A stretch of 64,000 bases of DNA from an uncultured Acidobacteriota bacterium. GTDB taxonomy: Bacteria > Acidobacteriota > Thermoanaerobaculia > Gp7-AA8. The position numbers and the translations under genes are program-made. Under the pieces are notes generated by a model. That model saw nothing but the letters and a program-made list of their open reading frames with translations. It searched no databases and had not been told where the DNA came from. Position 1 is the stretch's first letter. Each line of letters opens with the position of its first letter. Positions 2,655-34,800 of the stretch are shown here, piece after piece. The DNA lies in NCBI GenBank assembly GCA_963741955.1, contig CAVUKB010000013.1, forward strand, positions 1-64,000. The letters are read 5' to 3'.

Positions 2655-3978
2655 CAGGGCTTCGCTTCTTCCGCGGGCGGCGTCTCGATCCGCTCCGAAC
2701 GCGATTCGAGGGCAGCGTCCTCCCGAGGGGGTGCGTCTCTTTTGGGGTGCGGATCCTCCGATCCGCCGCGAAGATCGTGGCATACGCGATGATGACCGTG
2801 CCTGTGGTCATTCGCGGAGCGGTTTCTCGCGAGCGCGGCTTCGCTTCTGCCACAGGCGGCGTCTCGATGCGCTCCGAACGAGATTCGCGCGGCGGATCCC
2901 GCCTCGCGGGATCCGCGCCCCTCGGCGGGTGGCGTGAGCGGTCGCGAGAGTCGCGGGCTTCGCTCTGCCTCGGCGGGAACGTTCGGCTTCGTTCTCCCAA
3001 GGCGGAGCGTTCCCGAGGGGGTGCGGATCCTCCGATCCGCGGCGAAGATCGTGGCATACGCGATGATGACCGTGCCTGTGGTCATTCGCGGAGCGGTTTC
3101 TCGCAAGCGCGGCTTCGCTTCTGCCACGAGCATCCTCTCGATACGGTTCGAACGAGATTGGCGCGGCGGATCGGGGGATCCGCACCTCCTCGGCGGAAAC
3201 GTTCGTTCTCCCAAGGGGGTGCGTTCTCTTTTGGGGGTGCAGATCCTCCGATCTGCCGCGACGATCGTGGCATACGCGATGATGACCGTGCCTGCGGTCA
3301 TTCGCGGAGCGGTTTCTCGCGAGGGCGGCTTCGCTTCTGCCACAGAGCGGCGTCTCGATGCGCTTCGAACAGGATTCGCGCGGCGGATCGGGGGATCCGC
3401 ACCCCTCGGCGGGAACACGAGCGGCGCGAGAGATTGGAGGATCCGCGCCCCTCGGCGGGAGACGTTCGTTCTCCCAAGGGGGTGCGTTCTCCTTTGGGGG
3501 TGCGGATCCTCCGATCCGCGGCGAAGATCGTGGCATACGCGATGATGACCGTGCCTGCGGTCATTCGCGGAGCGGTTTCTCGCGGGGGCGGCTTCGCTTC
3601 TGCCACAGGCGTCGTCTCGATCCGCTTCGAACGAGATTCGCGCGGCGGATCGGAGGATCCGCACCCCTCGGCGGGAGACGTTCGGCTTCGTTCTCCCAAG
3701 GGGGTGCGTTCTCTTTTGGGGGTGCAGATCCTCCGATCTGCCGCGACGATCGTGGCGTCTTCGATGATGACCGTGCCTGAGGTCATTCGCGGAGCGGTTT
3801 CTCGCGAGTGCGGCTTCGCTTCTGCCGCGAGCGTCGTCTCGATCCGCTTCGAACAGGATTCGCGCGGCGGATCGGAGGATCCGCACCCCTCGGCGGGAAC
3901 ACGAGCGGCGCGAGAGATCGCGGGATCCGCACCCCTCGGCGGGAGACATGTGCGGCGCGAGGGATCGGAGGATCCGCC
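2655..3978. repeat. Tandem array 1 of REP-like doublets (5 units, spacing ~216-274 bp)
   Basis: Left palindrome GGGGTGC(G/A)GATCCTCCGATC at ~2744, 3018, 3234, 3497 and 3719, each followed by a conserved ~120-bp spacer and an inverted copy CGCGGCGGATCGGAGGATCCGCACCCCTCGG. Confidence 0.95.
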
Positions 3979-4002
3979 GGAAGGCGATGATCTGTGACGC
4001 GT

Positions 4003-4653
4003 TTACGGACGCGAGGGGGAGATCACCGGAGGGTTCCCTTTGTGATCTTCGTGGAGGATCTGGCCGAGGCCCACACCGGCGCCGATCAGTGCGACGGGCT
4101 GCCAGATCGGAACCGCCGCGACTTTGCAGACCACCGGGCGCATGTCGCCGGAGGGAGTGAGCGCGGCGACGATGTCCCTGCACGCGAACCCGCACGGGAC
4201 CTGGTGCTGATCGGCTTCAGTCCAACCGACGACCAGGTTCTGCGCGACGCGCGACTGCTCGGGGGTCAGGGTCGGAACCGGACACGACGCGTTCACGGCT
4301 GTGTTCATCAGTTCCGTCGAAGCTGAGCCGGAGGTGTCGTCAGTGGCCGTGATGCGGTAGTTGACCGATGGTGTCGCGCTCAGTGGAATCGGGAGGACGG
4401 CCCACCAGAGATCGCCCTGGGCGTGGCGCATCTGCACATACGACCAGTTGCAGTCTTTCTCGTCGCTGGCGCGGAAGACGACGCGGGCGGAGATGATCGG
4501 AGTCGTGCCGGTGATGTGGGCAGTGATCAACTGATGACCCTTGGCCGGAATGCACGAAACACCCGCAGTCGTGATCTGCGGCGCGGCCGCAAACAGCGAC
4601 GCGCACGAAAAGATGAGGGCTCCCACCCAGACAGCAATCCGGCTCTTCTTCAT
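4003..4653 (-). CDS. Hypothetical secreted Cys-rich protein
   Basis: MKKSRIAVWVGALIFSCASLFA signal peptide, GGAG SD upstream, beta-rich body with several Cys. Confidence 0.7.
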   Translation of the reverse strand: MKKSRIAVWVGALIFSCASLFAAAPQITTAGVSCIPAKGHQLITAHITGTTPIISARVVFRASDEKDCNWSYVQMRHAQGDLWWAVLPIPLSATPSVNYRITATDDTSGSASTELMNTAVNASCPVPTLTPEQSRVAQNLVVGWTEADQHQVPCGFACRDIVAALTPSGDMRPVVCKVAAVPIWQPVALIGAGVGLGQILHEDHKGNPPVISPSRP

Positions 4654-4713
4654 CGAATAATCTCCAGCCTCATGATCCGGGCGGATCCGGATGAGGCGAT
4701 CCGGGGTTCCACG

Positions 4714-4743
4714 AATGTAACGCCCCGAGACCCGTGACGTCAA
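4714..4743 (-). promoter_or_regulatory. Putative sigma70 promoter (TTGACG-18-TACATT)
   Basis: Near-consensus -35/-10 about 60 bp upstream of the ATG at 4653. Confidence 0.45.
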
Positions 4744-4844
4744 GGGGTGGTTCGGACGGCGGTCGAGCCTGCCGTCGTTTTCCGGGGGAAGGAGGAGGGC
4801 CGAGGGGAAACACTTCGTGCGGAGGACCGAGCGCAAGGGGTCCT

Positions 4845-5326
4845 CCGAGGGGTGCGGATCCTCCGATCCGCGGCGTGAATCGTGTTCGGAGCCGATCGAG
4901 ACGATGCCTGCGGCAGAAGCGCAGCTGTTCTCGCGCGTGACACGCTTCGCGAATGACCCCAGGCAAGGTCGTCGTCGTGAATGCCACAATCCTCGCGGCG
5001 GATCGGAGGATCCGCACCCCCTCGGGAGATTGCGTGGAGATATCCGAGCGCAGCTGTTCTCGCGCGGGGACACGCTTCGCGAATGGCCGCAGGCGCGGTC
5101 TTCGTCGTGGATGCCACAATGTTCGCCGCGGATCGGAGGATCCGCACCCCCTCGGGAGATTGCGTGGAGATATCCGAGCGCAGCTGTTCTCGCGGGGACA
5201 CGCTTCGCGAATGGCCGCAGGCACGGTCTTCGTCGTGAATGCCACGATGTTCGCCGCGGGTCCCGCAGCGCGGGATCCGCACCCCTCGGGAGATTGCGTG
5301 GAGATATCCGAGCGAAGCTGCTCTCG
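4845..5326 (-). repeat. Tandem array (~130-bp period, 3 units plus one core) of the same REP family, reverse orientation
   Basis: GCAGCTGTTCTCGCG at 4921, 5050 and 5180 (variant at ~5314); each unit ends in GGATCCGCACCCCCTCGGGAG; 4845-4920 is the reverse complement of the shared core. Confidence 0.9.
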
Positions 5327-6746
5327 CTACTCGCCTCCGAGGATCTTCTCCAGCCAGGCGGCGACCCATGCGTTCACGCGAATGTGGGTGCGCGCTTCCT
5401 TCGCATAGCGACGGGCGGCGTCGGGCTCGCCGCTCTGCCAGAGTGCGACCGCGGCGTAGAATTTCGATACGCTCTCGCTCTTTCCGAACGGCTCGAGGAG
5501 TGGCACCTGCGCTCGCGCCGTCGCGAAGTCGTTCGCGAGAACTGCCGCCTCGAGAAACGCGAGGCGAACGTCACGGCGCTCCGGCGCAGCGCGGACTGCG
5601 CGGAAGAGGATCTGCTCTGCTTCGGCGGCTTGTCCCGACTCGATCAGCTTCCGCGTTTCGGCAATCGCTGCGGTGAAGCGATCCCAGGTGCGGACTCCGC
5701 TGCCACGTTCTCCTGTCTGGCGCCGGGGCGGGGGCCGCCTCCGCGGTTCGCGGCGCGGGAGGACGCGTCGGAGTCGCTGTCGGCGGTGGCGTCTCCGGCG
5801 ATGCTGCCGTGGGAGCTTGCGCATCCGAGGATCCTTCGCCATCTGGTCGCGGAGCGCCTCGTGCGCAGTGGCGACATCGGGACGAGGGAGGAATTCGGAC
5901 GGAACCATCAGGAACGCTCCTCTCGCGTCGCTCCATCGCTCGAGCGCGACGAGACAGACGAAGCGGTCCGCGAAGAGCTCGGGGAAGGTCTGGCGCGTCT
6001 TCGAATCGAGCGCCGCAATCTCGTCGAGAGCCCCACTGCAATCGCCGTCGATTGCGCGAAGGTGTGCGTGGAGGGTCCGTCCCTCGACATTCGCAGTGAT
6101 CGATCCTCAGCGCCTCTCCCGCCCAGCGAAGGGCGGAGGGGCGGTCCCCTCGGGCCGCGCTCTCCTTCGCCCGCCGAGATCGGCGGCGAGCTCGGAGGGA
6201 GGAAGCGTCCCGTCCGTGGACGCCGGGGATGAAATGAGTGGCGGCGGCCGGGGGTGGAGGCTGTGCAGGCGAAGGTTCCGGCGGCGAGCGCTTGCCCCTC
6301 CCTCTCGGCGGCGCCGGGGTTTCAGGGGCGAATCGATGCGAGCGACGGAATGGCGCGAAACGTCTCCGGAGGAACGTCCCGAAGCAGGAGCGTCGCGAGT
6401 CGTTGCCGCAGCGGCGGCTCCAGAGGGATGCCTGGACCAGTTGCCGTAACGACGCTCTGCGTCGAGGAAGACGGGTCAGCTCCTCCTGCACTGCTGAGTG
6501 ATTCCCTGCGGACTCCTCTGCGAGGACGAGGCGGGCGAGGCCTTCGGAGAGGAGCAGCGGCCGGTCGAGGAATCCGAAAACCGCCACGCGGAGCTGCTCA
6601 GCAGCGTCCTCAAAGCGGCCGGCGTGGTACGCTTCTTTTCCACTCGCCAGGCGAAGCTCGTAGAAGTCGGCGCCTTTCGCGGTGAAGGCAACGCAGAGAA
6701 GCAGAGAGATCCCGATCAGGAGACCCGACCGTTGAGCACGATTCAC
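5327..6746 (-). CDS. Secreted TPR-repeat protein with Pro/Ala linkers, several apparent frameshifts
   Basis: Signal peptide, 'GKEAYHAGRFEDAAEQLR' and C-terminal 'AAVALWQSGEPDAARRY' TPR-like helices in different frames. Confidence 0.65.
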
Positions 6747-8145
6747 GGCTTCACCGGCCCGATAGCCCGCAAGACGTCGTTCGAGAAGTTTCCCGTCGTT
6801 CACTGGATCGCGTTCGCTCTGCTCGTCGTTCTGGTGGTTGTGGCGCCGTTCCCGTACGGGGCGATCATGCCCGGCGGCCAGGCTGCGGTGTCGGTCCTCG
6901 CGCTCCTCGCTGCAGCCCTGACCCTTTCGGCGGAGGATGGATCCGGCCGCCGTGTCGGGGCGGGATGGATTCCGGTCGCCGGCCTGGCCGCGATCGGAGT
7001 GCTCGGAATCATCCAGCTCGTCCCGCTTTCGGATTCGCTCGCCCGCACACTCTCTCCTGACAGCGCTCAAATCTACCATGACTCGAACCGGGTACTCGCG
7101 CTGTTCGGGCGCGGAGGGGTCGAACCGCGGATCTCCATCGCTCCGACCGCAACACGCGCTGCGGTGCTGATCATTCTCGCGTATGCCGCCGCGTTCCTCG
7201 CCGCGACGCTTCTCGTCGCGCGGCACGCGCCAGAGGCGGTTCCTGGCAGTTGCCGTTTTCGCGGGTGCGGCCGCGCAGATCCTCTACGCACTCGGCGACC
7301 GGAAAACCACCGACCGGATTCACGGTGCATTCGTGAACCCGAACAACCTTGCGGGCTACCTCGAGATCGCGCTGGCGCTCGCGTTCGGGATGATCTGGAC
7401 GGAACTGCTCAAGAACCGGGAGCGGGCGGTCGGATTGCGTGATCCCGCCGCGCGGCTGGAGAAGCGCGCCATCCCTCTGGTCCGCGCCATCCTGGTGTGG
7501 GGAGTGATCGCCACGGCGATCGGCCTCACGCGCTCACGCGGCGCAGTCGCGGCGGGAATCATCAGCACGGTTCTGATGATGGCGCTCTCTCCTCTCCATC
7601 CCCGCGTCTCGCTGAAGCGGCGCCGTACGGTGGCCGGAACCGCGCTGGCTCTCTTCGGAGGACTCCTCTTCGTCGCGATCGCAATCGGGAACACACCCCT
7701 CCTCCGCTTCCTCACCTCCGATCCGCGGGAGATCGGCTCCGACACGCGGGTTCAGCTCTGGCAGCTCTCGGTCGACACGTGGCGGCATTTCCCGATCTTC
7801 GGGTCGGGACTGGGGACGTTTCAGGAGGCGTTCCGGCGCGTCCAGCCGCGGGATCTGGTCGGCGTCGTCGAGCATGCGCACAGCGACTTCCTGCAGCTTC
7901 TCGCCACGGGAGGCCTCATCGGTGCGGCGCTGGGCGTGCTGGTCGTCGCCTCGGCGCTGGTGCTCCTCTTCCGGGCCTGGCTGGGACAACAGCACCGCGA
8001 AGAGGCAGGGTTGATCCTCGGCGCGATCGGGGCGATCGTCTCGCTCGTGCTTCACGGAATCGCGGAGTTCAACTTCTCACTTCCCGCAATTCCGATGACG
8101 CTCGCGGTGGTGGTGGGAATGGCGTGGCGCGCGAGAAGCAACTGA
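6732..8145 (+). CDS. O-antigen ligase-like (Wzy_C) membrane protein, frameshift near 7225
   Basis: 'GAFVNPNNLAGY', 'LTRSRGA', 'PIFGSGLGTF', 'HAHSDFLQ'; TTG start preceded by AGGAG. Confidence 0.85.
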
Positions 8146-8148
8146 GAT

Positions 8149-8252
8149 CATCTGATATCTATTATCTGTTATCTATTATCTGATGTTGTTATCGAGACAT
8201 CGCCACATACTAGATAATCAGATAATAGATACTAGATCCTAGATATCAGATG
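8149..8252. repeat. AT-rich inverted heptamer element A
   Basis: Perfect 13-bp terminal inverted repeat CATCTGATATCTA...TAGATATCAGATG with TTATCTG/TTATCTA units on the arms. Confidence 0.85.
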
Positions 8253-8258
8253 CTCTTC

Positions 8259-8335
8259 TGGTCTGCCCGGCAGGACTCGAACCTGCGACCCACAGCTTAG
8301 AAGGCTGTTGCTCTATCCACCTGAGCTACGGGCAG
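8259..8335 (-). tRNA. tRNA-Arg (anticodon TCT)
   Basis: Cloverleaf, ACAGC-CTTCTAA-GCTGT anticodon arm, GTTCGAGTCC T-arm, encoded CCA. Confidence 0.97.
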
Positions 8336-8384
8336 TGACCGGTGAAATGTATAGCACAGGTGGGAACGCGGAGGGGTGGGGGAT

Positions 8385-10035
8385 GATTTCGGATTTCGGA
8401 TTTGCTCCGCTTCTGCCACAGGTAGTGGGACCTGTTCTCCAGGGGGTGCGTTCTCTCTTAGGGGGTGCGGATCCTCTGATCCGCGGCGAAGATCGTGGCT
8501 TCCGCGACGATGACCGTGCCTGGGGTCATTCGCGGAGCGTTTTCTCGCGAGTGCGGCTTCGCTTCTGCCACAGGCATCGTCTCGATCCGCTTCGAACGAG
8601 ATCTGCGCGGCGGATCGGAGGATCCGCACCCCTCGGCGGGAACGTGAGTCGCGCGGCGGATCGGAGGATCAGCACCCCTCGGCGCAGGTCCGTTCGGCTT
8701 CATTCTCCCAAGGGGGTGCGGATCCTCTGATCCGCGGCGAAGATCGTGGCTTCTGCGACGATGACCGTGCCTCTGGTCATTCGCGGAGCGGCTTCTCGCG
8801 AGTGCGGCTTCGCTTCTGCCACGGGAATTGTCTCGATCCGCTTCGAACGGGATCTGCGCGGCGGATCGGAGGATCCGCACCCCTCGGCGCAGGCCCGTTC
8901 GGCTTCATTCTCCCAAGGGGGTGCGGATCCTCTGATCCGCGGCGCAGATCGTGGCTTCCGCGACGATGACCGTGCCTCGGGTCATTCGCGGAGCGTTTTC
9001 TCGCGAGTGCGGCTTCGCTTCTGCCGCGGACGTCCTCTCGATCCGCTTCGAACATGATTCGCGCGGCGGATCGGAGGATCCGCACCCCTCGGCGGGAACG
9101 TGAGTCGCGCGGTGGAAGAGAGGATCAGCACCCCTCGGCGCAGGTCCGTTCGGCTTCATTCTCCCAAGGGGGTGCGGATCCTCTGATCCGCGGCGAAGAT
9201 CGTGGCTTCCGCGACGATGACCGTGCCTCGGGTCATTCGCGGAGCGGCTTCTCGCAAGTGCGGCTTCGCTTCTGCCACAGGCATCGTCTCGATACGCTTC
9301 GAACGGGATCTGCGCGGCGGATCGGAGGATCCGCACCCCTCGGCGGGAACGTGAGTAGCGCGGCGGAAGAGAGGATCAGCACCCCTCGGCGCAGGTCCGT
9401 TCGGCTTCATTCTCCCAAGGGGGTGCGGATCCTCTGATCCGCGGCGAAGATCGCGGCTTCCGCGACGATGACCGTGCCGGTGGTCATTCGCGGAGCGTTT
9501 TCTCGCGAGTGCGGCTTCGCTTCTGCCACGAGCATCGTCTCGATCCGCTTCGAACGAGATCTGCGCGGCGGATCGGAGGATCCGCACCCCTCGGCGGGAA
9601 CGTGAGTCGCGCGGTGGAAGAGAGGATCCGCACCCCTCGGCGGGAACGTGAGTAGCGCGGTGGAAGAGAGGATCCGCACCCCTCGGCGCAGGTTCGTTCG
9701 GCTTCATTCTCCCAAGGGGGTGCGGATCCTCTGATCCGCGGCGAAGATCGCGGCTTCCGCGACGATGACCGTGCCTCGGGTCATTCGCGGAGCGTTTTCT
9801 CGCAAGTGCGGCTTCGCTTCTGCCACAGGCATCGTCTCGATCCGCTTCGAACGAGATCTGCGCGGCGGATCGGAGGATCCGCACCCCTCGGCGGGAACGT
9901 GAGTAGCGCGGTGGAAGAGAGGATCAGCACCCCTCGGCGGGAACGTGAGTCGCGCGGTGGAAGAGAGGATCCGCACCCCTCGGGGACCCGTTCTCCATGG
10001 GGCGCGAAAATTGTGGTTTGTGCGACGATGACCGG
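8385..10035. repeat. Tandem array 2 of REP-like doublets (6 units, periods 251/205/251/251/297 bp)
   Basis: GGGGGTGCGGATCCTCTGATCCGC at 8461, 8712, 8917, 9168, 9419 and 9716. Confidence 0.95.
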
Positions 10036-10096
10036 TAACCTTCGGCTCCCGTCAGATCCTCGATCCGCGATGCTTCTCAGATCCTCGATCCGCGAT

Positions 10097-10162
10097 AAAA
10101 AAAGGGGCTCCACGGTTGGCCGGGGAAGGGCTGGGCAGGCAGTGGCCAACCGTAGAGCCTTT
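10097..10162 (-). terminator. Probable intrinsic terminator with a long stem and large loop, after the ABC permease gene
   Basis: GGCTCTACGGTTGGCC...GGCCAACCGTGGAGCC followed by a T-run on the minus strand. Confidence 0.6.
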
Positions 10163-10183
10163 GAAAACCGAAGCGATCTCAGA

Positions 10184-11455
10184 CTACGTGTAACGCAACC
10201 ATCGCACCAGCTCGGGAATCGTCGGCTTCTTGCCGTACATCAGAATCCCGACCCGGTAAATCTTCGCGACGATCCAGATCATCAGGAAGATGGTAGCGAG
10301 CATTATAACTACGGAAAGTCCGATCTGCCACATCGGCGGCGTCTGGGCCGCAATTCTCATGTACATGAGGATCGGGGTGAAGAACGGAAAGAGAGAAAGG
10401 ACCGTGGCGAGGGTCCCGTTCGGGTTTTTCAGCACCGGCATGAGGAGCATCATCGGGATGATGATCAGCATCTGAGGAAGCATCGCCATCTGCTGGGCGT
10501 CCTCGTCGGAGTTGAACATCGAGCCGATCCCGGCGTAGATGGTGGCGTAGAGGAAGTAGCCGAGGAGGAAGTAGACCGGGAAGAACGCGAGCATGGTTCC
10601 GTTGATCGCCGGCTTGAAGTCCTTGGAGATGGCGAACATCGTCGCGATCTGAGGGGCGGTGAGCGCGACGGCGCAGAGGAGCCAGATCGCGATCTGGGTC
10701 AGACCCACCGCTCCGATCCCGACGATCTTTCCCATCATCAGCTGGAACGGCTTGACGGTCGAGACGATCACTTCGACGATCCGGTTCGACTTCTCCTCCA
10801 GCACTCCGCGGAGGACGTAGATCCCGTAGAAGATGAGAGCGAAGTAGACGAACATCACCAGGGCGAAGCTCATGAAGAAGGCGGTGATGCCGCTCTCCTT
10901 CTTCGAGGCGTCATTGGTCGCCTTCTGGACGTCGAAGTCGATCCGCCTGGTGGCCGCTTCGACGGCTGCGGGCGCGAGCCCCGCGTGCATCAGCCGGTAG
11001 CGCGTGATCGCCTCGCGGACGTTCGCTCGCAGCATGTCGGCTCCGATGATGCTGGAGGGATTCCGGGCGAAGTAGACGACCTTCCCGCTCTCGAGCGCCT
11101 TCGAATCGATGATGTAGTACCCCTGGATCGTCCCTTTCGCCGCGAGGTTGTTCAGATCGTGGCGCGCCTTGTCGAGCGAGCGGCCGGAGAGCTCCTCTTT
11201 CTCCAGAGGCGGCACGAGTCCGGCCGACTTGTCCTCCTTTTCCGTCACATCGCGGAGGATCGGGTAGAAGTCGCCGGTGGTGTCGACCACGCGAACCGGT
11301 TCGGGACTCGCCTTCGCCTTCGCGGTCAGGAGAGGAGGAATGATGGTGAAGCCGGCGGTGATCAGCGGGAAGAGCGCGGTGGTGATCCAGAAGCCTTTGG
11401 TCAGAACGCGCGTGAGGTACTCGCGTTTCATGATTGCCCAGATGGGTGATCGCAT
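10184..11455 (-). CDS. ABC-2 type transporter permease (NatB/YhaP-like)
   Basis: 'IMKREY', 'LEEKSNRIVEVIVS..KPFQLMMGKIVG', 'LSLFPFFTP', 'KIYRVGILMYG'. Confidence 0.9.
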   Translation of the reverse strand: MRSPIWAIMKREYLTRVLTKGFWITTALFPLITAGFTIIPPLLTAKAKASPEPVRVVDTTGDFYPILRDVTEKEDKSAGLVPPLEKEELSGRSLDKARHDLNNLAAKGTIQGYYIIDSKALESGKVVYFARNPSSIIGADMLRANVREAITRYRLMHAGLAPAAVEAATRRIDFDVQKATNDASKKESGITAFFMSFALVMFVYFALIFYGIYVLRGVLEEKSNRIVEVIVSTVKPFQLMMGKIVGIGAVGLTQIAIWLLCAVALTAPQIATMFAISKDFKPAINGTMLAFFPVYFLLGYFLYATIYAGIGSMFNSDEDAQQMAMLPQMLIIIPMMLLMPVLKNPNGTLATVLSLFPFFTPILMYMRIAAQTPPMWQIGLSVVIMLATIFLMIWIVAKIYRVGILMYGKKPTIPELVRWLRYT

Positions 11456-12441
11456 CAGGCCCTCCCTTCCATTGCAGCGGCGTGTACCGGATCGCCGCTG
11501 ACGGCCCGGACGAAGATCTCGTCTAGGGACATCTCGTACCGGGCGACGCTCTCGATTTCGTACCGGCTCGCAGCCTGACGGAGGAACGCGGAGACGCGAT
11601 AGCCGGGCACGAGGTCGATCTCGAGTTGCCCATCCTCCTGTCTGACCGCGACGAGACCTTCGAGTCCCTCCAGCGCGGAGCCCTGGCCCTCACCACGGAT
11701 CACGAGACGATTCCCGGAGAAGCGGCGTTTGATGTCGGCGATGGCCCCCTCCAGCACGAGCCTGGAGCGGTTGATCAGCGCGATCTCGTCGCAGATCTTC
11801 TCCGCCTGCTCCATGACGTGGGTCGAGAGGATGACGGTCTTCCCGCGGTCGCGGTACTCGAGAAGTGTCTCTTTGAGGATCCGTGTGTTCACCGGGTCGA
11901 GTCCGGAGAACGGCTCGTCGAGAATCAGCACTTCGGGCTCGTGAATCGCGCAGCCGATGAACTGGATCTTCTGCTGCATTCCCTTGGAGAGCTCTTCGAC
12001 TTTTTTGTTCTGCCACTCACCGAGGTCGAATTTCTCGAGCCATTCGAGCGACCGCTTCTTCGCGGTCGCACGGTCGAGGCCTCGAATCTCGCCGAGAAAG
12101 ACGAGATGGTCCATGACCTTCATTTTCCGGTACAGCCCGCGCTCCTCGGGGAGATATCCGATCAGCCGCGACGCGACTTCGGTGCTCGGCTGGCCGAGGA
12201 TCCGTATCTCGCCCGAATCGGGCATGGTGATGTTCATGATCATGCGGATGGTGGTGGTCTTCCCGGCACCGTTGGGGCCGAGGAGTCCGAACACCGTTCC
12301 GGGTCGGACGTGGAACGAAACGTCGTTGACTGCGACGAATGTGTCGTAGCTCTTGGTCACGCCGCGCACGTCGATGGCGGGGGTCGAGTCGTTCACCAGA
12401 TCTCCTTGCCGTTGGCTGGCGGTGGTGTTTCGATCATTCAC
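11455..12441 (-). CDS. ABC transporter ATP-binding protein (NatA/YhaQ-like)
   Basis: Walker A GPNGAGKTT, LSKGMQQK, ILDEPFSGLDP; the true start may be the GTG near 12396. Confidence 0.92.
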   Translation of the reverse strand: MNDRNTTASQRQGDLVNDSTPAIDVRGVTKSYDTFVAVNDVSFHVRPGTVFGLLGPNGAGKTTTIRMIMNITMPDSGEIRILGQPSTEVASRLIGYLPEERGLYRKMKVMDHLVFLGEIRGLDRATAKKRSLEWLEKFDLGEWQNKKVEELSKGMQQKIQFIGCAIHEPEVLILDEPFSGLDPVNTRILKETLLEYRDRGKTVILSTHVMEQAEKICDEIALINRSRLVLEGAIADIKRRFSGNRLVIRGEGQGSALEGLEGLVAVRQEDGQLEIDLVPGYRVSAFLRQAASRYEIESVARYEMSLDEIFVRAVSGDPVHAAAMEGRA

Positions 12442-12554
12442 TTACGGAAGAGTCGGACGCGAGTTTACGTCCGCGACCGGATCGCGTCTACTGACGATGT
12501 ACCCGGAACGGGGGAAAGGTGACTAGGACTTCGGGGAGAATTTCGGAATGGCTC

Positions 12555-12712
12555 CGAGGGGTGCGCGAAGCGTGTCGTACGCCACGAAGACCGTTCCCCG
12601 CGGGTTCCGCGCCGCGTCTTCCCGAACAGCGCTCCGCCTCTCCCATCGCCTTCGTCTCGGTCCGCTCCGAACTCGATCTTCGCGGCGGATCAGAGGATCC
12701 GCGCCCCTCGGC
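12555..12712. repeat. Solo, diverged copy of the REP doublet/core
   Basis: CCGAGGGGTGCG... and GCTCCGCCTCTCCC...CGCGGCGGATCAGAGGATCCGCGCCCCTCGG. Confidence 0.7.
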
Positions 12713-12821
12713 TCGTCCGGCTTGCGCGGTCGCGCGGCTGGGGTTAGAATGCGCGACCGCTCCGCCGGAAATGCGGAATTCGCACCGGGACCTCAGGGTT
12801 GAACGTGCCGTCGTGAACGAA

Positions 12822-12898
12822 GCACCCATAGCTTAATTGGATAGAGCATCTGACTACGGATCAGAAGGTTCGAGGTTCGAGTCCTCGTGGGTGCACCA
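12822..12898 (+). tRNA. tRNA-Arg (anticodon ACG)
   Basis: TCTGA-CTACGGA-TCAGA anticodon arm, T-arm, CCA. Confidence 0.97.
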
Positions 12899-12966
12899 AT
12901 CCGAATCCGAGATCGAGCGGCGGGCTCACCGGGCCCGCCTTCGTGTTCTTTGAGAAACTGTCGGTG

Positions 12967-13434
12967 ATGAGTGAGCGTGACTGGATGGAGGAAGCGCTCG
13001 TCCTCGCCCGCCAGGCGGGAGACGAGGGCGAGGTTCCGATCGGCGCGGTGATCGTCGACGCGGACGGGAAGATCATCGGACGTGGCCGGAACCGGCGCGA
13101 AGCGGGTGATCCACTCGGCCATGCCGAGATCGAGGCGATCCGGGAAGCGGCTGCGGCCGCAGGCGACTGGCGCCTGAGCGGGACCACGATGGTGGTGACG
13201 CTCGAGCCGTGTGCCATGTGTGCCGGAGCGATCGTCAACGCCCGGATCGACCGTCTGATCTTCGCCGCACCCGATCCGAAGGCCGGCTTCTGCGGCTCGC
13301 TCGGCAATCTGGTGCAGGATCCGCGTCTGAACCACCGCGTTCTCCTCGAGCAGGGACTCTGCGAAGAAGAGTCGCGCGCGCTGCTGCAGGCCTTCTTCCG
13401 CGGTCTCCGCGGGAGGAAATTCACCACCGAATGA
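12967..13434 (+). CDS. tadA: tRNA adenosine(34) deaminase
   Basis: 'EVPIGAVIV', 'HAEIEAI', 'TLEPCAMCAGA' and 'NH' motifs. Confidence 0.95.
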   Translation: MSERDWMEEALVLARQAGDEGEVPIGAVIVDADGKIIGRGRNRREAGDPLGHAEIEAIREAAAAAGDWRLSGTTMVVTLEPCAMCAGAIVNARIDRLIFAAPDPKAGFCGSLGNLVQDPRLNHRVLLEQGLCEEESRALLQAFFRGLRGRKFTTE

Positions 13435-13473
13435 GCACCGTTGTACGCCAGCGGTGCAGCAGTCCGAGACTGC

Positions 13474-13566
13474 GGAGAGATGGCAGAGCGGTTGAATGCG
13501 GCGGTCTCGAAAACCGTTGTACCGGTAACCCCGGTACCGAGGGTTCGAATCCCTCTCTCTCCGCCA
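13474..13566 (+). tRNA. tRNA-Ser (anticodon CGA)
   Basis: GCGGT-CTCGAAA-ACCGT anticodon arm, long variable arm, CCA. Confidence 0.96.
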
Positions 13567-13634
13567 CTTTCGACCATGAACGGGCCGCCCGGCGCGGCCG
13601 GAGCTCTTTGTCAGAACGAGTCGTTCCCGAGCGC

Positions 13635-13725
13635 GGAGAGATGTCCGAGTGGCTTAAGGAGCACGCTTGGAAAGCGTGTGTGCGGTAACCCCGTACCGTG
13701 GGTTCGAATCCCACTCTCTCCGCCA
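13635..13725 (+). tRNA. tRNA-Ser (anticodon GGA)
   Basis: CACGC-TTGGAAA-GCGTG anticodon arm, long variable arm, CCA. Confidence 0.96.
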
Positions 13726-13793
13726 ATTTTCGGGAGACGGAACGGCGCGGGGCATCGCGTTGTTCTGAACCGGTACGAGCTCCATTCCCGATT

Positions 13794-13916
13794 CTCCTCT
13801 GGGATGAGCTCGGGTCCTGTGCAGCAGGACGATCGAACCTCGTCAGGTCCGGAAGGAAGCAGCGATAAGATCGCAACCCTGTGTGCCGCAGTCAACCTGA
13901 GCTCTTCCCAGCGGAG
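13794..13916 (+). ncRNA. ffs: Signal recognition particle RNA (small, 4.5S type)
   Basis: Conserved TCAGGTCCGGAAGGAAGCAGC domain IV, long closing stem, typical position upstream of dnaX. Confidence 0.92.
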
Positions 13917-13979
13917 AAACGATCCTCCGGGCAGGCCCCTCTTTTCACGTCGCGCCGCGCCCTGTAACCTGTCGCCCAA

Positions 13980-17847: not shown

Positions 17848-19008
17848 GGATTCCGGATTCGGAGCTCGGATTTCGGATTTGCTCCGCTGCTGCTGAGAGT
17901 GCTCTCTCGATCCGCTCCGAACGACGATTTCCGCGGCGGATCGGAGGATCCGCACCCCTCGGCGGTCCTGGGCGGGTTCTCAAATCTCCCAAATGAAATG
18001 GTGATCGGAGTCCGGATCCGCGGCTACGCAAGGTTTCAGGGAAGAGACGCCCGTTCGAGCTTTATAGCGAATGCTTCTGCCACGGGTATCGTCTCGAACC
18101 GCTTCGAACGCGAGTCGCGCGGCGGATCGGAGGATCCGCACCCCTCGGCGCGAACGTGAGTCGCTGGTGATCGGAGGATCCGCGCCCCTCGGCGTCAGCA
18201 GGCGGGTTTTCAAATCGCGCAAATGAAATCGCTGTCGAAGGCACGAACTGCACCGGCCACGGAAACGGTTCGGAAGAAAGACGCCCGTTCGGTCGATGGG
18301 CAATTCGCGCAAATGGAATCGTGATCGGAGTCCGGATCTCTCAGGCTACGCAAGCGTTCTCAGGGAAGAGACGCCCGTTCGAGCTATAGCAAATGCTTCT
18401 GCCGCAGGTGTCCTCTCGATCCGCTTCGAACGAGAGTCGCGCGGCGGATCGGAGGATCCGCACCCCTCGGCGTCAGCAGGCGGGTTTTCAAATCGCGCAA
18501 ATGAAATCGCTGTCGAAGGCACGAACTGCACCGGCCACGGAAACGGTTCGGAAGAAAGACGCCCGTTCGGTCGATGGGCAATTCGCGCAAATGGAATCGT
18601 GATCGGAGTCCGGATCTCTCAGGCTACGCAAGCGTTCTCAGGGAAGAGACGCCCGTTCGAGCTATAGCAAATGCTTCTGCCACAGGTGTCCTCTCGAACC
18701 GCTTCGAACATGAGTCGCGCGGCGGATCGGAGGATCCGCGCCCCTCGGCGTGAACGAGAGTCGCGCGGCGGATCGGAGGATCCGCACCCCTCGGCGTTAG
18801 CAGGCGGGTTTTCAAATCGCGCAAATGAAGTCGCTGTCGAAGTCACGAACTGCACCGGCCACGGAAACGGTTCGGAAGAAAGACGCCCGTTCGGTCGATG
18901 GGCAAATCGCGCAAATGGAATCGTGATCGGAGTCCGGATCTCTCGGGCTACGCAAGCGTTCTCAGGGAAGAGACGCCCGTTCGAGCTATGGCAAATGTTT
19001 CTGCCGCC
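17848..19008. repeat. Tandem array 3 (periods 278 and 324 bp; core, REP and a ~180-bp dimeric module)
   Basis: T(C/T)AGCAGGCGGGTTTTCAAATCGCGC at 18195, 18473 and 18797; a shorter, diverged first unit at ~17880-18190. Confidence 0.95.
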
Positions 19009-21605: not shown

Positions 21606-21883
21606 ATTTGCGCGATTTGAGACTTACGAGCTACGCGAGATAGCCGTGGCGGCAGAGCGCAGCGATAGGACGCGACGTGGGAGCGAGGCGCGGTTTACCA
21701 GACTTTTGGAGCCCGAATTCGCGGAGCGAGAGATGAGAGCGGGTTGAGCGTGGGTCCGAATTGAGAGCAGCGGTCCTTGAAAGTTCGGCCACAGAGAGAT
21801 CCTTGAAAGTTGGAGCTGGCCCGGTTTCTCCTTGCGATCGGCACCGCCGCATGAATCGCGCAATTCGCGCAAATCGCGCAAAT
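21606..21883. mobile_element. 278-bp element bounded by 14-bp inverted repeats built from nonamers; possible decayed GxxExxY-like cargo
   Basis: ATTTGCGCGATTTG (21606-19) and CAAATCGCGCAAAT (21870-83), with three AA(T/A)TCGCGC units on the right arm; fills the gap between two convergent stop codons. Confidence 0.5.
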
Positions 21884-23691: not shown

Positions 23692-23872
23692 GAAAAGGAG
23701 AACCCCGCGTCCCTCCCCACCCATTTCGGATTGCGGAATTGGAGGTTGCAGAGACGTGCTGCCCCGCCCGCCAGGCCCGCATTTCTCACACCGTCTCGAC
23801 GCGAGGAGGGGGAGAGCGGCCTGGATGCAAGGCACGCGCAGACTCCCGGGTCGTTGATGTAGAGTTCCGGTG

Positions 23873-25044: not shown

Positions 25045-25686
25045 GCAGATTCGGTGTCGTCTTCTTCGACGTCGATTCAACGCTCGTCTCGATCGAAGGA
25101 ATCGACGTCCTCGCCGGCGGAAACGAAGAGGTCGCAAGACTGACTGCCGCAGCGATGAACGGAGACATTCCGATCGACGACGTCTACCGCAGAAGGCTCG
25201 AGATTCTCCGGCCATCGCGCGATCAGATTCGCGATCTCTCGACCCGGTACGTGGCCGCGCTCCTTCCCGATGCGAAGGAGGTCTTTGAAACGTTGCGTCA
25301 GCGAGGGATCGACGTACATCTCGTCACGGCGGGGATCGAGCAGGCGGTCGAGCCTCTCGCCAAGGATCTCGGGATCGAGCCGCGTGCGCTTCACGCGGTG
25401 CGGCTGACTTTCGAAGATGACGGTTCGTATTCCGGATTCGATGAGAGGAGTCCACTGACCCGGAGCGGCGGCAAGGAGATGGTCGTACTCGACGTCCGCG
25501 CCCGAACCGCACGGAAGAGCAGCATTGATCGGAGACGGAGTGACGGATCTGGAAGCACGAGACGCGGTTGATCTCTTCATCGGATTCGGCGGAGTTACAA
25601 TCCGGGATCGCGTCCGGCTCGGATCCGGGGTTTACATCACGGAGCCGAGACTCTCGGCCGTTCTCCCGTATCATTCTCGAGGGTGA
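25041..25686 (+). CDS. serB: HAD-IB phosphoserine phosphatase-like protein, frameshift near 25505
   Basis: 'FDVDSTL', 'LTAAAMNG', 'GGK'; the shifted frame gives 'IGDGVTDLEA..DLFIGFGG' and ends at TGA 25686; in an operon with serA. Confidence 0.75.
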
Positions 25687-26787: not shown

Positions 26788-28371
26788 ATGCCTCGGGTAC
26801 TGGTGACGGATACCATCGCGGAATCCGGACTGGAGATCCTCCGCCGCGCAGCGGACGTCGAGGTCGACTTCCGTCCCGGTCTGAAGGGAGAGGATCTCCT
26901 CGAGGGAGTCCGGAATGCGGATGCCCTGATCACCCGCAGCGGGACGCCGGTCACGAAAGAGCTTCTGGATGCAGGCGATCGTCTGCGCATCGTCGGTCGC
27001 GCGGGCGTCGGGCTCGACAACGTCGACGTCGATGCCGCCACGGCACGCGGGATTCTGGTCATCAACGCACCGACCGCGAACATCATGTCCGCGACCGAGC
27101 ACACCATGGCTCTGATGCTCGCCTCCTGCCGCAGCGTTCCCGCCGCGGACGCATCGGTGCGGCGTCACGAGTGGGCGCGCTCGAAATTCATGGGGATCGA
27201 GCTGAGTGGGAAGACGCTCGGCATCGTCGGGCTCGGACGGATCGGGAGCCGCGTGGCGACCCGGGCCCGGGCGTTCGGTATGAAGATCCTCGCCTGCGAT
27301 CCCTACATCGCGGCTTCCGTTGCGGAACGGGTCGGCGCGGAGCTCATCCCTCTGGAGCGTCTGATCCGAGAGGCTGACTTCATCACCGTCCACACGCCAT
27401 TGACGGACGAGACGCACGGGATGATCGGCCCGGCCGAGATCGCGCAGATGAAGGAAGGCGTCGTCCTGATCAACTGCGCCCGCGGAGGAATCTACCAGGA
27501 AGCAGCGCTCGTCGATGGACTCCGCAGCGGGAGAGTCGCCCGCGCCGCGATCGACGTCTACGAGTCGGAACCGCCGAAGCCGGGGCACCCGTTCTTCGAC
27601 GCCCCGAACCTGATTCTCACTCCCCACATCGGTGCCAACACCATCGAGGCACAGGACCGCGTCGCGGTGCAGACCGCGGAGATGGTAGTCGAAGCGCTGC
27701 AGGGCTCGATCTTCGTCTCCGCAGTGAACCTTCCCTTCGAAGGATTGCCCGATCCCAATGCCGCGCCTCTGATCGATCTCTCCGAAAAGACGGGGCTCAT
27801 TGCCGCGCAGCTCCTCCACGGGCCGGTCACGCATGCGGCCATCGAGATCTGGGGGATCGAAGAAAAGTGGATGCGGATCCTCTCGGTGGCGGCGCTCAAG
27901 GGGCTGCTGGTCCGCGTCCTCAACGAATCGATCAACTTCGTCAATGCGGAGAACGTGGCCGAGCAGCGGGGCATCGATCTCGGCGCCACCGTCCACCCGA
28001 TGCCGCACGACTACACGAACCTGATCACGTTCCGGGCCGGCTCCGCGACCGAGGAGGTCTGCGTCTCGGCGACGCTCTTCAGCGAGAAGAACCAGCGGAT
28101 CGTCGGGGTGAACTCGTTCCGGGTGGAGTTCAAACCGAACGGATACCTTCTCTACATCCTGAACCGTGACGTTCCCGGGGTGGTCGGAAAGGTCGGCACG
28201 ATCCTGGGCGACCGCGAGATCAACATCGCCGAGTACAATCTGGCTCGCGCCCCGGAAGGAGGGATGGCGATGGCGATCATCACCATCGATTCACCGCTCG
28301 ACGACGAAACGCTCGCGTTCCTCCGGTCATTCAAGGAGATGGAGGAAGTGAAACTCATCAAAATCATCTAG
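26788..28371 (+). CDS. serA: D-3-phosphoglycerate dehydrogenase (type I, with ASB and ACT domains)
   Basis: '[11 protein letters not shown]', 'GLGRIG', 'INCARGG', 'TPHIGA', C-terminal ACT 'NRDVPGVVG'. Confidence 0.96.
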
Positions 28372-28474
28372 TATCTGGTATCTGTTATCTGTTATCTGTT
28401 ATCTGTTATTGAGTTTGTAAATCATCACGTAATCTGAATGCATTACCCGATAACAGATAATAGATAATAGATAA
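28365..28474. repeat. AT-rich inverted heptamer element C
   Basis: About 6 (G/T)TATCTG units on the left and about 4 (C/T)AGATAA units on the right, around a unique centre. Confidence 0.85.
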
Positions 28475-28477
28475 TCG

Positions 28478-29473
28478 GTGCCTGTCATGAAATACCGGCA
28501 ACTCGGAAATACGGGAATCTCGGTGAGCGAGATCGGCTTCGGAGCCTGGGCCATCGGCGGACCGACCGAAGTCGGAGGTGTTCCCGTCGGGTGGGGACGG
28601 ACCTCGGATGACGAGTCGCTCGCCGCCATCCGGAAGGCGCGCGAGCTCGGCGTGACGTTCTACGACACGGCGGACATCTACGGCAACGGCCGGAGCGAGT
28701 CGCTTCTCGGCATCGTCCTCTCCCGTAAACGGGAAGAGGTCGTCATCGCGACGAAGGTCGGAATGGTCCGGAGTGCGAGCGGCGACTACCGGAAGGATCT
28801 GTCGCGCAAGCACATCTTCTATGCGATCGACGGTTCCCTCAAGCGCCTTCGGACGGACTACGTCGATCTCTATCAGATCCACAATCCTTCCATCTCCGAC
28901 CTCGAATCGGGAGAGATCCAGGAGACGATGGAGATGCTGCAGAACCTCGGCAAGATCCGCTTCTGGGGCGTGTCGATCTCCACACCGGAAGAGGGGATCG
29001 AGATCATCAGGCGCCGATGGGGATATGCGCTTCAGGTGCTCTACAACATCCTGAACCAGGCGCCGGCCCGTGAGCTCTTCCCTCTCGCAAAAGAGCGAGG
29101 CTACGGAATCATCTCCCGCGTGCCGCTCGCCTCGGGGTTGCTCACCGGGAAGTATCGTGCGAGCAGCAGGTTCGCGGCAGATGACGTCCGTCAGAATTTT
29201 CTCACCCCGCGGAGACTGGAGGAGGTGAAGGTGCGGCTCGACGAAGTGAAGGGGATCGTGGCAGGGGCGTCGAGGACGCTCACGGAAGCCGCCCTCCGCT
29301 TCGTCCTGGCCGACGATGCGGTCTCGACCACGATTCCGGGGGCGCGGAACGCGCATCAGGTCACGTCGAATGCAGCGGCCTCGGGCGGATCGCTCGACCC
29401 GGACGTGGTCCGGCGACTCAGACAGCGGCTGGGCGCATACGACTTCTACCATCGCCACTCGATCCGGGTGTGA
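28478..29473 (+). CDS. Aldo/keto reductase
   Basis: 'YRQLGNTGISVSEIGFG', 'DTADIYG', 'SLKRLRTDYVDLYQIH', 'PLASGLLTG'. Confidence 0.93.
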   Translation: MPVMKYRQLGNTGISVSEIGFGAWAIGGPTEVGGVPVGWGRTSDDESLAAIRKARELGVTFYDTADIYGNGRSESLLGIVLSRKREEVVIATKVGMVRSASGDYRKDLSRKHIFYAIDGSLKRLRTDYVDLYQIHNPSISDLESGEIQETMEMLQNLGKIRFWGVSISTPEEGIEIIRRRWGYALQVLYNILNQAPARELFPLAKERGYGIISRVPLASGLLTGKYRASSRFAADDVRQNFLTPRRLEEVKVRLDEVKGIVAGASRTLTEAALRFVLADDAVSTTIPGARNAHQVTSNAAASGGSLDPDVVRRLRQRLGAYDFYHRHSIRV

Positions 29474-32369: not shown

Positions 32370-32479
32370 TTGGCCGTAAATATTCTGCGATCGGGCTTGT
32401 ACGCAGAATTTAGTTCGCCCGAGCGAAGCTGTAGCGGTATTTTATTCTTCTAAAGTCCTATTGGGCCAAATATTCTGTG

Positions 32480-34800
32480 GCTCCGCTTCCGCCACAGGCG
32501 TCCTCTCGATCCGCTTCGAACGCGATTCGCGCGGCGGATCGCAAATCCGCACTTCCATGGCGCGAACGTGAGTCGCATTGAGGTGCTTGTGCGACTGATC
32601 GTGCCGCCCCCTCACGGGGGCTCCCATCTGCATTCCTCGATCTCCGGACCTCCGCCTGACGGCGGAGGCTGAACGGGCTGGCGCCCTTCGGGCTCACGGG
32701 CGAACCGGAGAGCCGCGATATGACGTTCCATCGTACTGAGTCTTCGGAGGCGGGTTTTCAAATCGCGCAAATGGAATCGCTGTCGAAGGACCGAACTGCA
32801 CCTACCACGGAACCGGTTCGGAAGAAAGACGCCCGTTCGGTCCGTGGCAATTCGCGCAAATGGATTCGTGATCGGAGCCCCGGATCTCTCCGTTAACGCG
32901 AGCGTGCTCCGGGAAGTGACGCCCGTTCCACCAATCGCAAATGCTTCCGCCACAGGCGTCCTCTCGATCCGCTTCGAACGCGATTCGCGCGGCGGATCGC
33001 AAATCCGCACTTCCATGGCGCGAACGTGAGTCGCATTGAGGTGCTTGTGCGACTGATCGTGCCGCCCCCTCACGGGGGCTCCCATCTGCATTCCTCGATC
33101 TCCGGACCTCCGCCTGACGGCGGAGGCTAAACGAGCTGGCGCCCTTCGGGCTCACGGGCGAACCGGAGAGCCGCGATGCGACGTTCCGTCGTACTGAATC
33201 TTCGGAGGCGGGTTTTCAAATCGCGCAAATGGAATCGCTGTCGAAGGACCGAACTGCACCTACCACGGAACCGGTTCGGAAGAAAGACGCCCGTTCGGTC
33301 CGTGGCAATTCACGCAAATGAAATCGTGATCGGAGCCCCGGATCTCTCCGTTAACGCGAGCGTGCTCCGGGAAGTGACGCCCGTTCCACCAATCGCAAAT
33401 GCTTCTGCCGCAGACGTCCTTTCGATCCGGTTCCGAACACGAGTCGCGCGGCCGATTGCAAATCCGCACTTCCATGGCGCGAACGTGAGTCGCATTGAGG
33501 TGCTTGTGCGACTGATCGTGCCGCCCCCTCACGGGGGCTCCCATCTGCATTCCTCGATCTCCGGACCTCCGCCTGACGGCGGAGGCTAAACGGGCTGGCG
33601 CCCTTCGGGCTCACGGGCGAACCGGAGAGCCGCGATGTGACGTTCCATCGTACTGAGTCTTCGGAGGCGGGTTTTCAAATCGCGCAAATGGAATCGCTGT
33701 CGAAGGACCGAACTGCACCTACCACGGAACCGGTTCGGAAGAAAGACGCCCGTTCGGTCCGTGGCAATTCGCGCAAATGAAATCGTGATCGGAGCCCCGG
33801 ATCTCTCCGTTAACGCGAGCGTGCTCCGGGAAGTGACGCCCGTTCCACCAATCGCAAATGCTTCTGCCGCAGACGTCCTTTCGATCCGGCTCCGAACACG
33901 AGTCGCGCGGCCGATTGCAAATCCGCACTTCCATGGCGCGAACGTGAGTCGCATTGAGGTGCTTGTGCGACTGATCGTGCCGCCCCCTCACGGGGGCTCC
34001 CATCTGCATTCCTCGATCTCCGGACCTCCGCCTGACGGCGGAGGCTAAACGGGCTGGCGCCCTTCGGGCTCACGGGCGAACCGGAGAGCCGTGATGCGAC
34101 GTTCCATCGTACTGAGTCTTCGGAGGCGGGTTTTCAAATCGCGCAATTGAAATCGCTGTCGAAGGCACGAACTGCACCGGCCACGGAAACGGTTCGGAAG
34201 AAAGACGCCCGTTCGGTCGATGGCAATTCGCGCAAATGAAATCGTGGTCGGAGCCCTGGATCTCTCCGGTTACGCAACCGTTCTCCGGGAAGAAACGCCC
34301 GTTCCAGCCACAGCAAATGCTTCTGCCGCAGACGTCCTTTCGATCCGGCTCCGAACACGAGTCGCGCGGCGGATTGCAAATCCGCACTTCCATGGCGCGA
34401 ACGTGAGTCGCATTGAGGTGCTTGTGCGACTGATCGTGCCGCCCCCTCACGGGGGCTCCCATCTGCATTCCTCGATCTCCGGACCTCCGCCTGACGGCGG
34501 AGGCTAAACGAGCTGGCGCCCTTCGGGCTCACGGGCGAACCGGAGAGCCGCGATGCGACGTTCCGTCGTACTGAATCTTCGGAGGCGGGTTTTCAAATCG
34601 CGCAAATGGAATCGCTGTCGAAGGACCGAACCGCACCGGCCACGGAACCGGTTCGGAAGAAAGACGCCCGTTCGGTCCGTGGCAATTCGCGCAAATGAAA
34701 TCGTGATCGGAGCCCCGGATCTCTCCGTTAACGCGAGCCTGCTCCGGGAAGTGACGCCCGTTCCACCAATCGCAAATGCTTCTGCCGCAGACGTCTCGTC
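32480..34800. repeat. Tandem array 4 (5 units of 458-459 bp)
   Basis: Unit starts GCTTC(C/T)GCC at 32485, 32943, 33401, 33860, 34319 and 34778 (the last is a stub). Confidence 0.97.

Follow-up and report, generated by a model that had tools for sequence, protein, structure and literature searches.

A single family of palindromic repeats occupies six intergenic loci in the window analysed here, by which I mean the whole stretch of 64,000 nucleotides (nt) at the start of contig CAVUKB010000013.1 from an uncultured Acidobacteriota bacterium. As bounded by self-blastn, these loci, numbered arrays 1 to 5 plus a solo element (Table 1), cover 6,961 nt (10.9% of the window), which agrees with the total of about 7 kb given in an initial annotation of this DNA. 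Its statement that all copies lie between genes is confirmed as well. The repeat family is real and non-random: a 31-mer singled out in that annotation has 18 matches in the window at up to three mismatches (17 on the minus and one on the plus strand, all within 3379-18794), against none in 100 shuffled sequences. I regard it as rather probable that the arrays are non-coding mosaic palindromic repeats of the kind of repetitive extragenic palindromes (REPs), REP doublets forming hairpins (REPINs) and bacterial interspersed mosaic elements (BIMEs), which were dispersed and then multiplied locally.

In this reading, a basic hairpin unit of about 70 nt exists in two diverged types, R and L, and an inverted L and R together would make up a long-hairpin element of about 180 nt. 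In a first step, an element with a shared left end would have been spread to a number of intergenic positions, most of them shortly behind a stop codon, by an enzyme encoded outside the window, the likeliest candidate being an HUH-Y1 transposase of the REP-associated tyrosine transposase (RAYT) or terminal inverted repeat-associated tyrosine transposase (TIRYT) type. In a second step, the element and the sequence between direct copies of R (modules C and D, and linkers) would have been multiplied at each site by unequal homologous recombination or replication slippage and then homogenised, giving arrays of up to 2.3 kb.

Structure of the repeat units

The anatomy of the arrays was obtained from profile searches with five reference pieces and from the maps derived from them. 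The R unit is about 70 nt long and carries near its 3' end the hairpin GCGGATC-GGAG-GATCCGC, with a stem of 7 bp and a loop of 4 nt. Its partner in arrays 1 to 3, the L unit, is an inverted and diverged R: when oriented alike the two are 64-68% identical, and a profile of R, with positions 8-71 out of its 71, aligns to the L units on the opposite strand. The initial annotation overlooked that the partner module in these three arrays is an inverted core, and its claim that each array pairs the core with a different set of modules has to be given up, as arrays 1 to 3 share L, and arrays 4 and 5 share module C.

The 47 hairpin regions of the window were assigned to classes by reading of the listed copies. 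The stem-loop expected of REPs is present in 31 of them, with a stem of at least 7 bp that in two copies shows a compensated change (GCAGATC...GATCTGC) and in one is extended to 11 bp. A further 11 regions, mostly h units, are degenerate and nonetheless amplified in register; in array 3, the left hairpin arm has been lost from most copies of the h unit. The other five regions, all in array 5, contain a variant hairpin that differs in its loop and lacks the tail CACCCCTCGG, which is why the 31-mer misses this array. The hairpin core that the initial annotation ascribed to all copies therefore has to be amended for array 5.

An adjacent pair of L and R folds as one single long hairpin. Its predicted energy is -115.2 kcal/mol, compared to -82.3 +/- 4.8 kcal/mol in shuffled sequences (z = -6.94), and none of 200 shuffles was equally stable. 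The adjacent ends of R and L form inverted arms of 27-36 nt that are 81-94% complementary; the arms that bear on a REPIN-like fold measure 33-36 nt, with a complementarity of 83-94%.

Table 1. Loci of the repeat family and reference copies of its units and modules. Positions are those of the window; bounds according to self-blastn and to Tandem Repeats Finder (TRF) are given separately.
Feature	Position	Strand	Self-blastn	TRF	Composition
Array 1	2658..3977	+	2658-3977	2716-3977; periods 216/222, higher-order period 479	Truncated R, five L-R pairs, h units behind two pairs
Array 2	4841..5327	- (reversed)	4841-5327	4918-5327; period 130	One R, then three L; 130-nt period
Array 3	8385..10050	+	8434-9983	8460-9983; periods 205/251/297/456, 46-nt sub-repeats	Left-end motif, 14-nt R stub, six L-R blocks with 0-2 h each
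Solo element	12540..12712	+	12565-12712		Left-end motif, L with hairpin deleted, intact R
Array 4	17848..19008	+	17881-19007	18105-18751; period 278	Left-end motif, R, C2, R, h, C, R, C, R, h, C, 12-nt R stub
Array 5	32476..34804	+	32476-34804	32485-34795; period 459, 5.0 copies, 95% matches	Five R-D-C blocks, then R stub; period 459
R unit (reference)	9816..9886	+			Core of the initial annotation; 22 full-length copies in the window
L unit (reference)	9699..9802	+			14 copies, arrays 1-3 only
h unit (reference)	9895..9932	+			46-nt period; duplicate of the 3' half of R
Module C (reference, 201 nt)	18477..18677	+			8 full copies plus one half copy, confined to arrays 4 and 5
Module D (reference, 191 nt)	32558..32748	+			Array 5 only; 5 copies
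Left-end motif ATTTCGGAWTKGCTCC (16 nt)	8393..8408	+			Only 3 matches in the window, 0.14 expected

Modules C and D are non-palindromic. Module C consists of two related direct sub-units, each with TCGCGCAAATGRAWTCG, and its 17-nt motif has 16 matches at up to two mismatches; module D contains several short GC-rich hairpins and has an h-like 5' end. All R units of array 4 point in the same direction, and the 3' end of array 3 is an L unit with a deleted hairpin, so that this array, which the initial annotation had recognised, reaches to about 10050 and not to 10035. As a separate observation, the 9-mer AATCGCGCA is repeated 3.4 times at 21854-21884, in the spacer before a gene for a VWA-domain protein, and overlaps TCGCGCAAATG, the motif marking module C.

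Each of the three matches of the left-end motif lies at the left boundary of a locus, at 8393 for array 3, at 12540 for the solo element and at 17870 for array 4. That three loci have this end in common argues that a defined element was dispersed. The ends of the solo element are inverted with respect to each other (CCGAGGGGTGCG ... CGCGCCCCTCGG), and a copy of about 160 nt with inverted termini, inverted arms of up to 27-36 nt and a defined left end at three loci would also suit miniature inverted-repeat transposable elements (MITEs) that descend from a conventional DDE insertion sequence with matching terminal inverted repeats. I consider such an origin very improbable, as the conserved part of the units is a small, REP-like hairpin, no parent insertion sequence lies in the window, two distant-mode searches of 72,556 plasmids gave no array match, and no target-site duplication is recognised except the 2-nt CT at the solo copy, which is possibly due to chance.

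Host lineage and occurrence elsewhere

The host is a deep-branching member of the Thermoanaerobaculia (Acidobacteriota). A search with its DnaX yielded 58 related loci (914,823 nt in total), of which the best 25 (L001-L025) belong to metagenome-assembled genomes of Thermoanaerobaculia/Acidobacteriota and encode DnaX proteins with 55-61% identity over the full length. Because the nearest full-length DnaX among 5.8 billion proteins is only 61% identical, the lineage is without a close sequenced relative. Using blastn, the arrays gave no match in any of the 58 related loci, L001-L025 included, and the exact 22-mer hairpin pattern has no match in 185,579 species genomes. The gene order tadA-dnaX-ybaB-recR-mglB-mglA-cofD is conserved in the relatives; by simple arithmetic, the spacer between mglA and cofD measures about 50-120 nt in L001, L006 and L008, as compared to 1,187 nt in the window. 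Similarly, the spacer between the gene for an ABC ATPase and tadA is 325 nt long in L001 and 500 nt in the window, including 158 nt of the solo copy. The lack of matches in related loci and the short mglA-cofD spacers found there argue that the family may be specific to the lineage, and in the literature on Thermoanaerobaculia repeats and on REPs in Acidobacteria no description of this family was found.

The family does occur in public sequence data. With the translated arrays as bait I retrieved one spurious public open reading frame (ORF), and a search of 1.84 billion representatives raised the number to eight, all made of the same or related units and none of them encoded in the window. In one of these (P0002), 11 hairpin copies are read in rotating frames and nine out of ten spacings are exactly 115 nt, while another (P0008) has a hairpin spacing of 417 nt; arrays with other periods therefore occur at other public loci. 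The periods across the family so far are 115, 130, 205-297, 278, 417 and 459 nt. Arrays of this type break short-read assemblies and create spurious gene calls, as these eight proteins in public sets illustrate.

Comparison with known palindromic repeats

REP, REPIN and BIME elements are best known from Proteobacteria. In look and probable behaviour, the family described here probably belongs to this type, as the initial annotation had suggested: it has a hairpin unit, and alternating L and R that together form one long fold. As to copy number and dispersal, there are 47 hairpin regions in six intergenic loci of the window and related arrays at other public loci. What it lacks is the tetranucleotide GT[AG]G, found at the 5' foot of the hairpin in canonical REPs beside TnpA-REP genes (PMC6006769). 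On the strand reading GGGGTGCGGATCC, the foot is GGGT if a 7-bp stem is assumed and GGTG for a 6-bp stem, and on the other strand it is CGCG. Membership in the canonical RAYT-associated class of REPs therefore fails on the foot motif. Canonical REPs are also accompanied by a cognate Y1/HUH gene in single copy, with the same repeats on both sides (a REPtron); no such gene is among the 125 translations of the window.

BIMEs consist of REPs in alternating orientation with regular spacing and linkers (PMC2817692, PMC3333891). In Escherichia coli, the REPs fall into three related sub-types, Y, Z1 and Z2 (PMC6006769); REPs are 20-40 nt long, and clusters of them can be reiterated in tandem together with flanking DNA (PMC3733652). 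Arrays 1 to 3 follow this pattern, since two diverged sub-types alternate there, regularly spaced by fixed linkers (of 13-14 nt and of 17-64 nt between L and R), in tandem and between genes, whereas arrays 4 and 5, in which R runs one way, do not. In contrast to the BIMEs of E. coli, the units here measure about 70-100 nt, the periods are 205-479 nt, arrays extend to 1.6 kb, the foot GT[AG]G is missing, and arrays 4 and 5 are arranged head-to-tail with non-palindromic modules of 200-390 nt. A further trait of BIMEs is that IHF, DNA gyrase or Pol I can bind to the cluster.

A similar picture emerges for the REPINs of Pseudomonas and the enterobacteria, defined as two inverted REP-type units that form one hairpin (PMC3337134), which is the way the L-R pair folds. 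The solo copy is itself a doublet, of which one arm has decayed, comparable to REP singletons, which are seen as remnants of dimers (PMC3733652). In REPINs it is the doublet that replicates, and the solo copy would be consistent with this. The differences are the foot tetranucleotide, the distance of about 120 nt between the two hairpins of an L-R pair, a far heavier tandem amplification, and the RAYT, which is known for those REPINs and has no counterpart in the 64-kb window.

Closer in phylogenetic terms are the repeats flanking TIRYT genes, RAYT-like genes with long flanking inverted repeats that form a group specific to Acidobacteria (PMC3733652). These repeats are likewise long and inverted, they occur in dimers or clusters, and some of them contain self-complementary tracts; some share the motif GGGGWSAS (PMC3733652). 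In the present family the G-rich GGGGTGCG adjoins the palindrome. The TIRYT families are called moderately abundant, and the available part of that paper describes no kb-scale arrays (PMC3733652). The motif of the TIRYT repeats is matched by GGGGTGCG at only 7 of 8 positions, and no TIRYT gene lies in the window.

Clusters of different longer modules punctuated by a short palindromic repeat are also a feature of the dRS3 repeats of Neisseria. The intergenic mosaic elements of this genus (NIME) have been described as modular, and dRS3 has been linked to phage integration, a process of which no counterpart is seen in the window. The present hairpins, unlike dRS3, have no CGTC tag at their end, and the unit sequences are unrelated. 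The dRS3 repeat is equated with the CGTC-1 family, and most Neisseria copies are located in large clusters (PMC3733652).

The related species have a REPIN-like hairpin family of their own, with doublets in L004 (4450-4605), L005 (14869-14971) and L006 (2271-2379 and 11001-11109), and single copies in L019 (5291-5312) and L021 (9488-9509). Like the L-R pairs, the doublets are inverted, several are intergenic within the conserved gene cluster, and their loop (CTCC or CTCT) corresponds to the loop in the window on the equivalent strand. In contrast, the stem has another sequence and 8-10 bp, the foot GTGG fits GT[AG]G, and only single doublets, no tandem arrays, are present in about 0.4 Mb of Thermoanaerobaculia loci.

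The family in the window is thus unlike the described cases in unit length, head-to-tail arrays, long non-palindromic modules and array size: one hairpin unit has built kb-scale arrays of higher order, in BIME-like as well as satellite-like forms, and these account for 11% of the 64 kb of the window. If a cognate Y1 enzyme is encoded in the genome, the system would offer a clean setting in which to study the transition of REP-type elements to tandem arrays; if there is no such enzyme, REP-like elements would here have proliferated without a RAYT.

Proposed growth and dispersal of the arrays

Units from one array resemble each other more than those of different arrays. Among L units, identity is 96% inside array 3 and 92% inside array 1, compared to 85% between arrays; R units reach 93% in array 3 and 91.5% in array 5, compared to 83% between arrays. 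On a tree of the 14 L units the array label changes only twice, which is the minimum (mean of shuffled labels 6.6), and a tree of the 22 R units has 8 such changes, compared to a mean of 13.6 after shuffling. The repeat copies of array 5 are mutually 92-98% identical. Not only single units but also whole L-R-h-h blocks of 297 nt are duplicated (96% matches), as are h units without a hairpin. Since the likeness within arrays is higher and since half-units without a hairpin are also amplified, the arrays appear to grow locally, and the sequences argue that this would most simply be achieved by unequal recombination or slippage. Arrays 4 and 5 terminate in R stubs of 12-25 nt, which are the mark of a duplication between direct repeats.

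The initial annotation had instead proposed a trans-mobilised REP system that captures cassettes and amplifies them into arrays, for example by rolling-circle HUH activity. In this model, a trans-acting RAYT (HUH-Y1) would cut at the hairpin, and rolling-circle copying of circular single-stranded intermediates would both capture neighbouring cassettes and make the head-to-tail arrays. Strict head-to-tail periods (five times 459 nt in array 5, and 115 nt in nine out of ten spacings of P0002) are what this mechanism would produce, arrays 4 and 5 have one R hairpin in each repeat block, and RAYT-like genes do exist in Acidobacteria (PMC3733652). However, the arrays end at no constant distance from a hairpin, arrays 4 and 5 stopping 12-25 nt into R and thus far away from it, and neither the duplication of h units without a hairpin nor that of L-R-h-h blocks needs a hairpin-specific enzyme. 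Cassette capture by rolling circle is not needed either, because array-specific variants, higher-order periods, amplification of h and R stubs all fit tandem duplication, and I consider the mechanism unlikely. The stronger proposal that the arrays are a bacterial satellite DNA, in which an HUH-type enzyme encoded elsewhere would generate rolling-circle head-to-tail concatemers that sweep up adjacent sequence as modules and come to make up a sizeable share of the chromosome, seems quite unlikely.

Several observations also weigh against the preferred reading, i.e. a dispersed REP-type element with local multiplication, and the first two of them count against copying by a RAYT just as well. None of the 125 translations of the window matches any transposase family, HUH/Y1 included, in line with the statement in the initial annotation that the window has no transposase gene, and GT[AG]G, the hallmark foot of RAYT-type REPs, is absent from the hairpins, with the TIRYT motif only incompletely matched. 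Head-to-tail dimers of REPs are, according to the available part of PMC3733652, absent, rare or under-represented; arrays 4 and 5 and the public P0002 are head-to-tail. No target-site duplication or empty-site junction can be defined at the array loci. The syntenic sites in related genomes are short and without the family, but an exact empty-site junction could not be drawn because the intergenic DNA does not align with that of the nearest relatives. As to local growth, the tree of R shows units of array 1 interspersed with those of array 3, and a higher similarity within arrays is also expected from gene conversion after independent insertions. Moreover, the fourth copy of module C in array 5 (34123-34323) is 93% like the copies in array 4 and only 88-89% like its neighbours; this mosaic indicates exchange between arrays that are 14 kb apart, and hence a history that is not purely local. 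Finally, conserved genes in the window carry frameshifts, so that the copy numbers in the arrays are provisional.

These frameshifts are apparent from a comparison with four relatives: the cofD-like gene (19027-20058) shows three frame changes, the VWA-domain gene (21886-23700) at least two, and the gene at 25047-25671 needs one, at about 25510. In addition, fragments of Wzz, SLBB and polysaccharide-export genes are spread over several frames at the left end of the window (119-1213). Such broken genes are either due to an error-prone long-read consensus or real pseudogenes. As the frameshifts show that the consensus is imperfect, the arrays could in principle be artefacts, wholly or in part, that arose when repeats were expanded or wrongly joined during an error-prone long-read assembly. 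This I find hardly credible, as locus-specific variants are present at six separate loci and the family also forms arrays in independent public ORFs. Furthermore, the copies of array 5 differ at 45 columns, 44 with substitutions and one with an indel, which resembles neither indel noise nor exact duplication, and the variants are nested, separating copies 1-2 from copies 3-5.

Genomic context and potential function

The initial annotation had noted that several arrays end close to a stop codon, which holds for three of them. The end of array 2 adjoins the stop codon of the gene at 5327-5908 on the minus strand, and array 4 starts 5 nt past the stop codon of a mglA-like gene (17843), with the start of a cofD-like gene at about 19030 on its other side. 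Array 5 is flanked by convergent genes, a uvrA-like gene (stop at 32369) and a gene for a short-chain dehydrogenase/reductase, whose stop codon (34803) adjoins the array. Array 3 is situated between a tRNA-Arg gene on the minus strand (8259-8335) and the terminator of an ABC operon. Large hairpins past stop codons may incidentally have a putative role in transcript stabilisation or insulation; as read from the units, no T-run follows the hairpins located there.

This position just past stop codons raises the question whether the arrays are not selfish DNA but functional cis elements or RNA genes under selection, for instance structured small RNAs, 3'-end stabilisers, insulators, or binding arrays for nucleoid or topology proteins. 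That stems are kept, two copies even with a compensated change, and that the 17-nt motif of module C recurs 16 times at up to two mismatches could both be expected from selection, and unrelated long hairpins are found at some of the same slots in relatives (between the ABC ATPase gene and tadA in L007, and between mglA and cofD in L024). However, module order and copy number are different at every locus, the sequences are absent from the related loci, and no sigma-70-like promoters or terminator-like sites are present inside arrays 4 and 5. The 459-nt unit of array 5 folds barely more stably than its shuffles (z about -2), and conservation of an RNA fold in module C finds no support, with one compensatory pair among 54 predicted. 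Together with the lack of any Rfam match, these results make selection for such a function an unlikely explanation of the arrays.

At gathering score, Rfam reports only four tRNAs and the signal recognition particle RNA, all of them outside the arrays, so that the arrays are no known RNA family. In E-value mode nothing was found in array 5, and in array 3 only sub-threshold noise from microRNA hairpins, small RNAs and CRISPR direct repeats (CRISPR-DR). The CRISPR-DR scores are 18.6-18.8 bits as compared to a gathering score of 42, and a CRISPR or integron-like array was rejected since the sequences between the hairpins are themselves repeated. Protein coding was rejected as well: long ORFs cross the arrays, but they have no Pfam family and failed the filter for G+C at third codon positions (GC3), and the lengths of array ORFs differ between near-identical copies.

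Two long AT-rich hairpins outside the family (8145-8256 and 28355-28490) are located immediately 3' of stop codons, in a genome of 62% G+C; their arms are runs of heptamers of the type TATCTGT or TATCTAT. The tetranucleotide GATC occurs at 20.3 per kb in the arrays and 13.7 per kb outside; with an expectation of about 3.5 per kb from base composition, it is roughly four-fold over-represented in the whole window.

Neither self-blastn nor the repeat searches placed any copy of the family in the 35-64 kb part of the window, at the end of which rsmG, mnmG, mnmE, parA and parB are found (58.9-64 kb). In the initial annotation the part free of copies was called origin-proximal; this is a fair inference from these five genes, while neither dnaA nor oriC lies within the window. 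Cumulative GC skew has its peak at about 31-35 kb, where the genes also change from plus to minus orientation (convergent); this coincides with the largest array, although parB-parA-rsmG-mnmG-mnmE look origin-proximal. A rearrangement breakpoint at this position is possible.

Other repeats in the lineage

A second kind of hairpin, with arms made of short tandem repeats, was seen in several related loci: L003 (20998-21102), L004 (9529-9613), L005 (9884-9978 and 17635-17790), L007 (4821-4911), L019 (2518-2611), L023 (11142-11247) and L024 (1368-1451). These hairpins are 85-156 nt long and unrelated in sequence, they are mostly intergenic, and some of them occupy the slots in which the repeats are located in the window. 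They may represent a lineage-wide kind of intergenic element in Thermoanaerobaculia. In the closest relative, a 396-nt AT-rich palindrome lies between ybaB and recR (L001, 11346-11741), built of tandem repeats of 31-47 nt with 69 nt as higher-order period.

A tandem repeat of a different nature is present inside the dnaX gene of the window, where 36 nt are repeated in frame 3.6 times with 83% matches (15155-15283), resulting in a 12-residue repeat in a linker. A public product of 371 amino acids, encoded on a contig of 7,558 nt, is identical to the first 67% of this DnaX.

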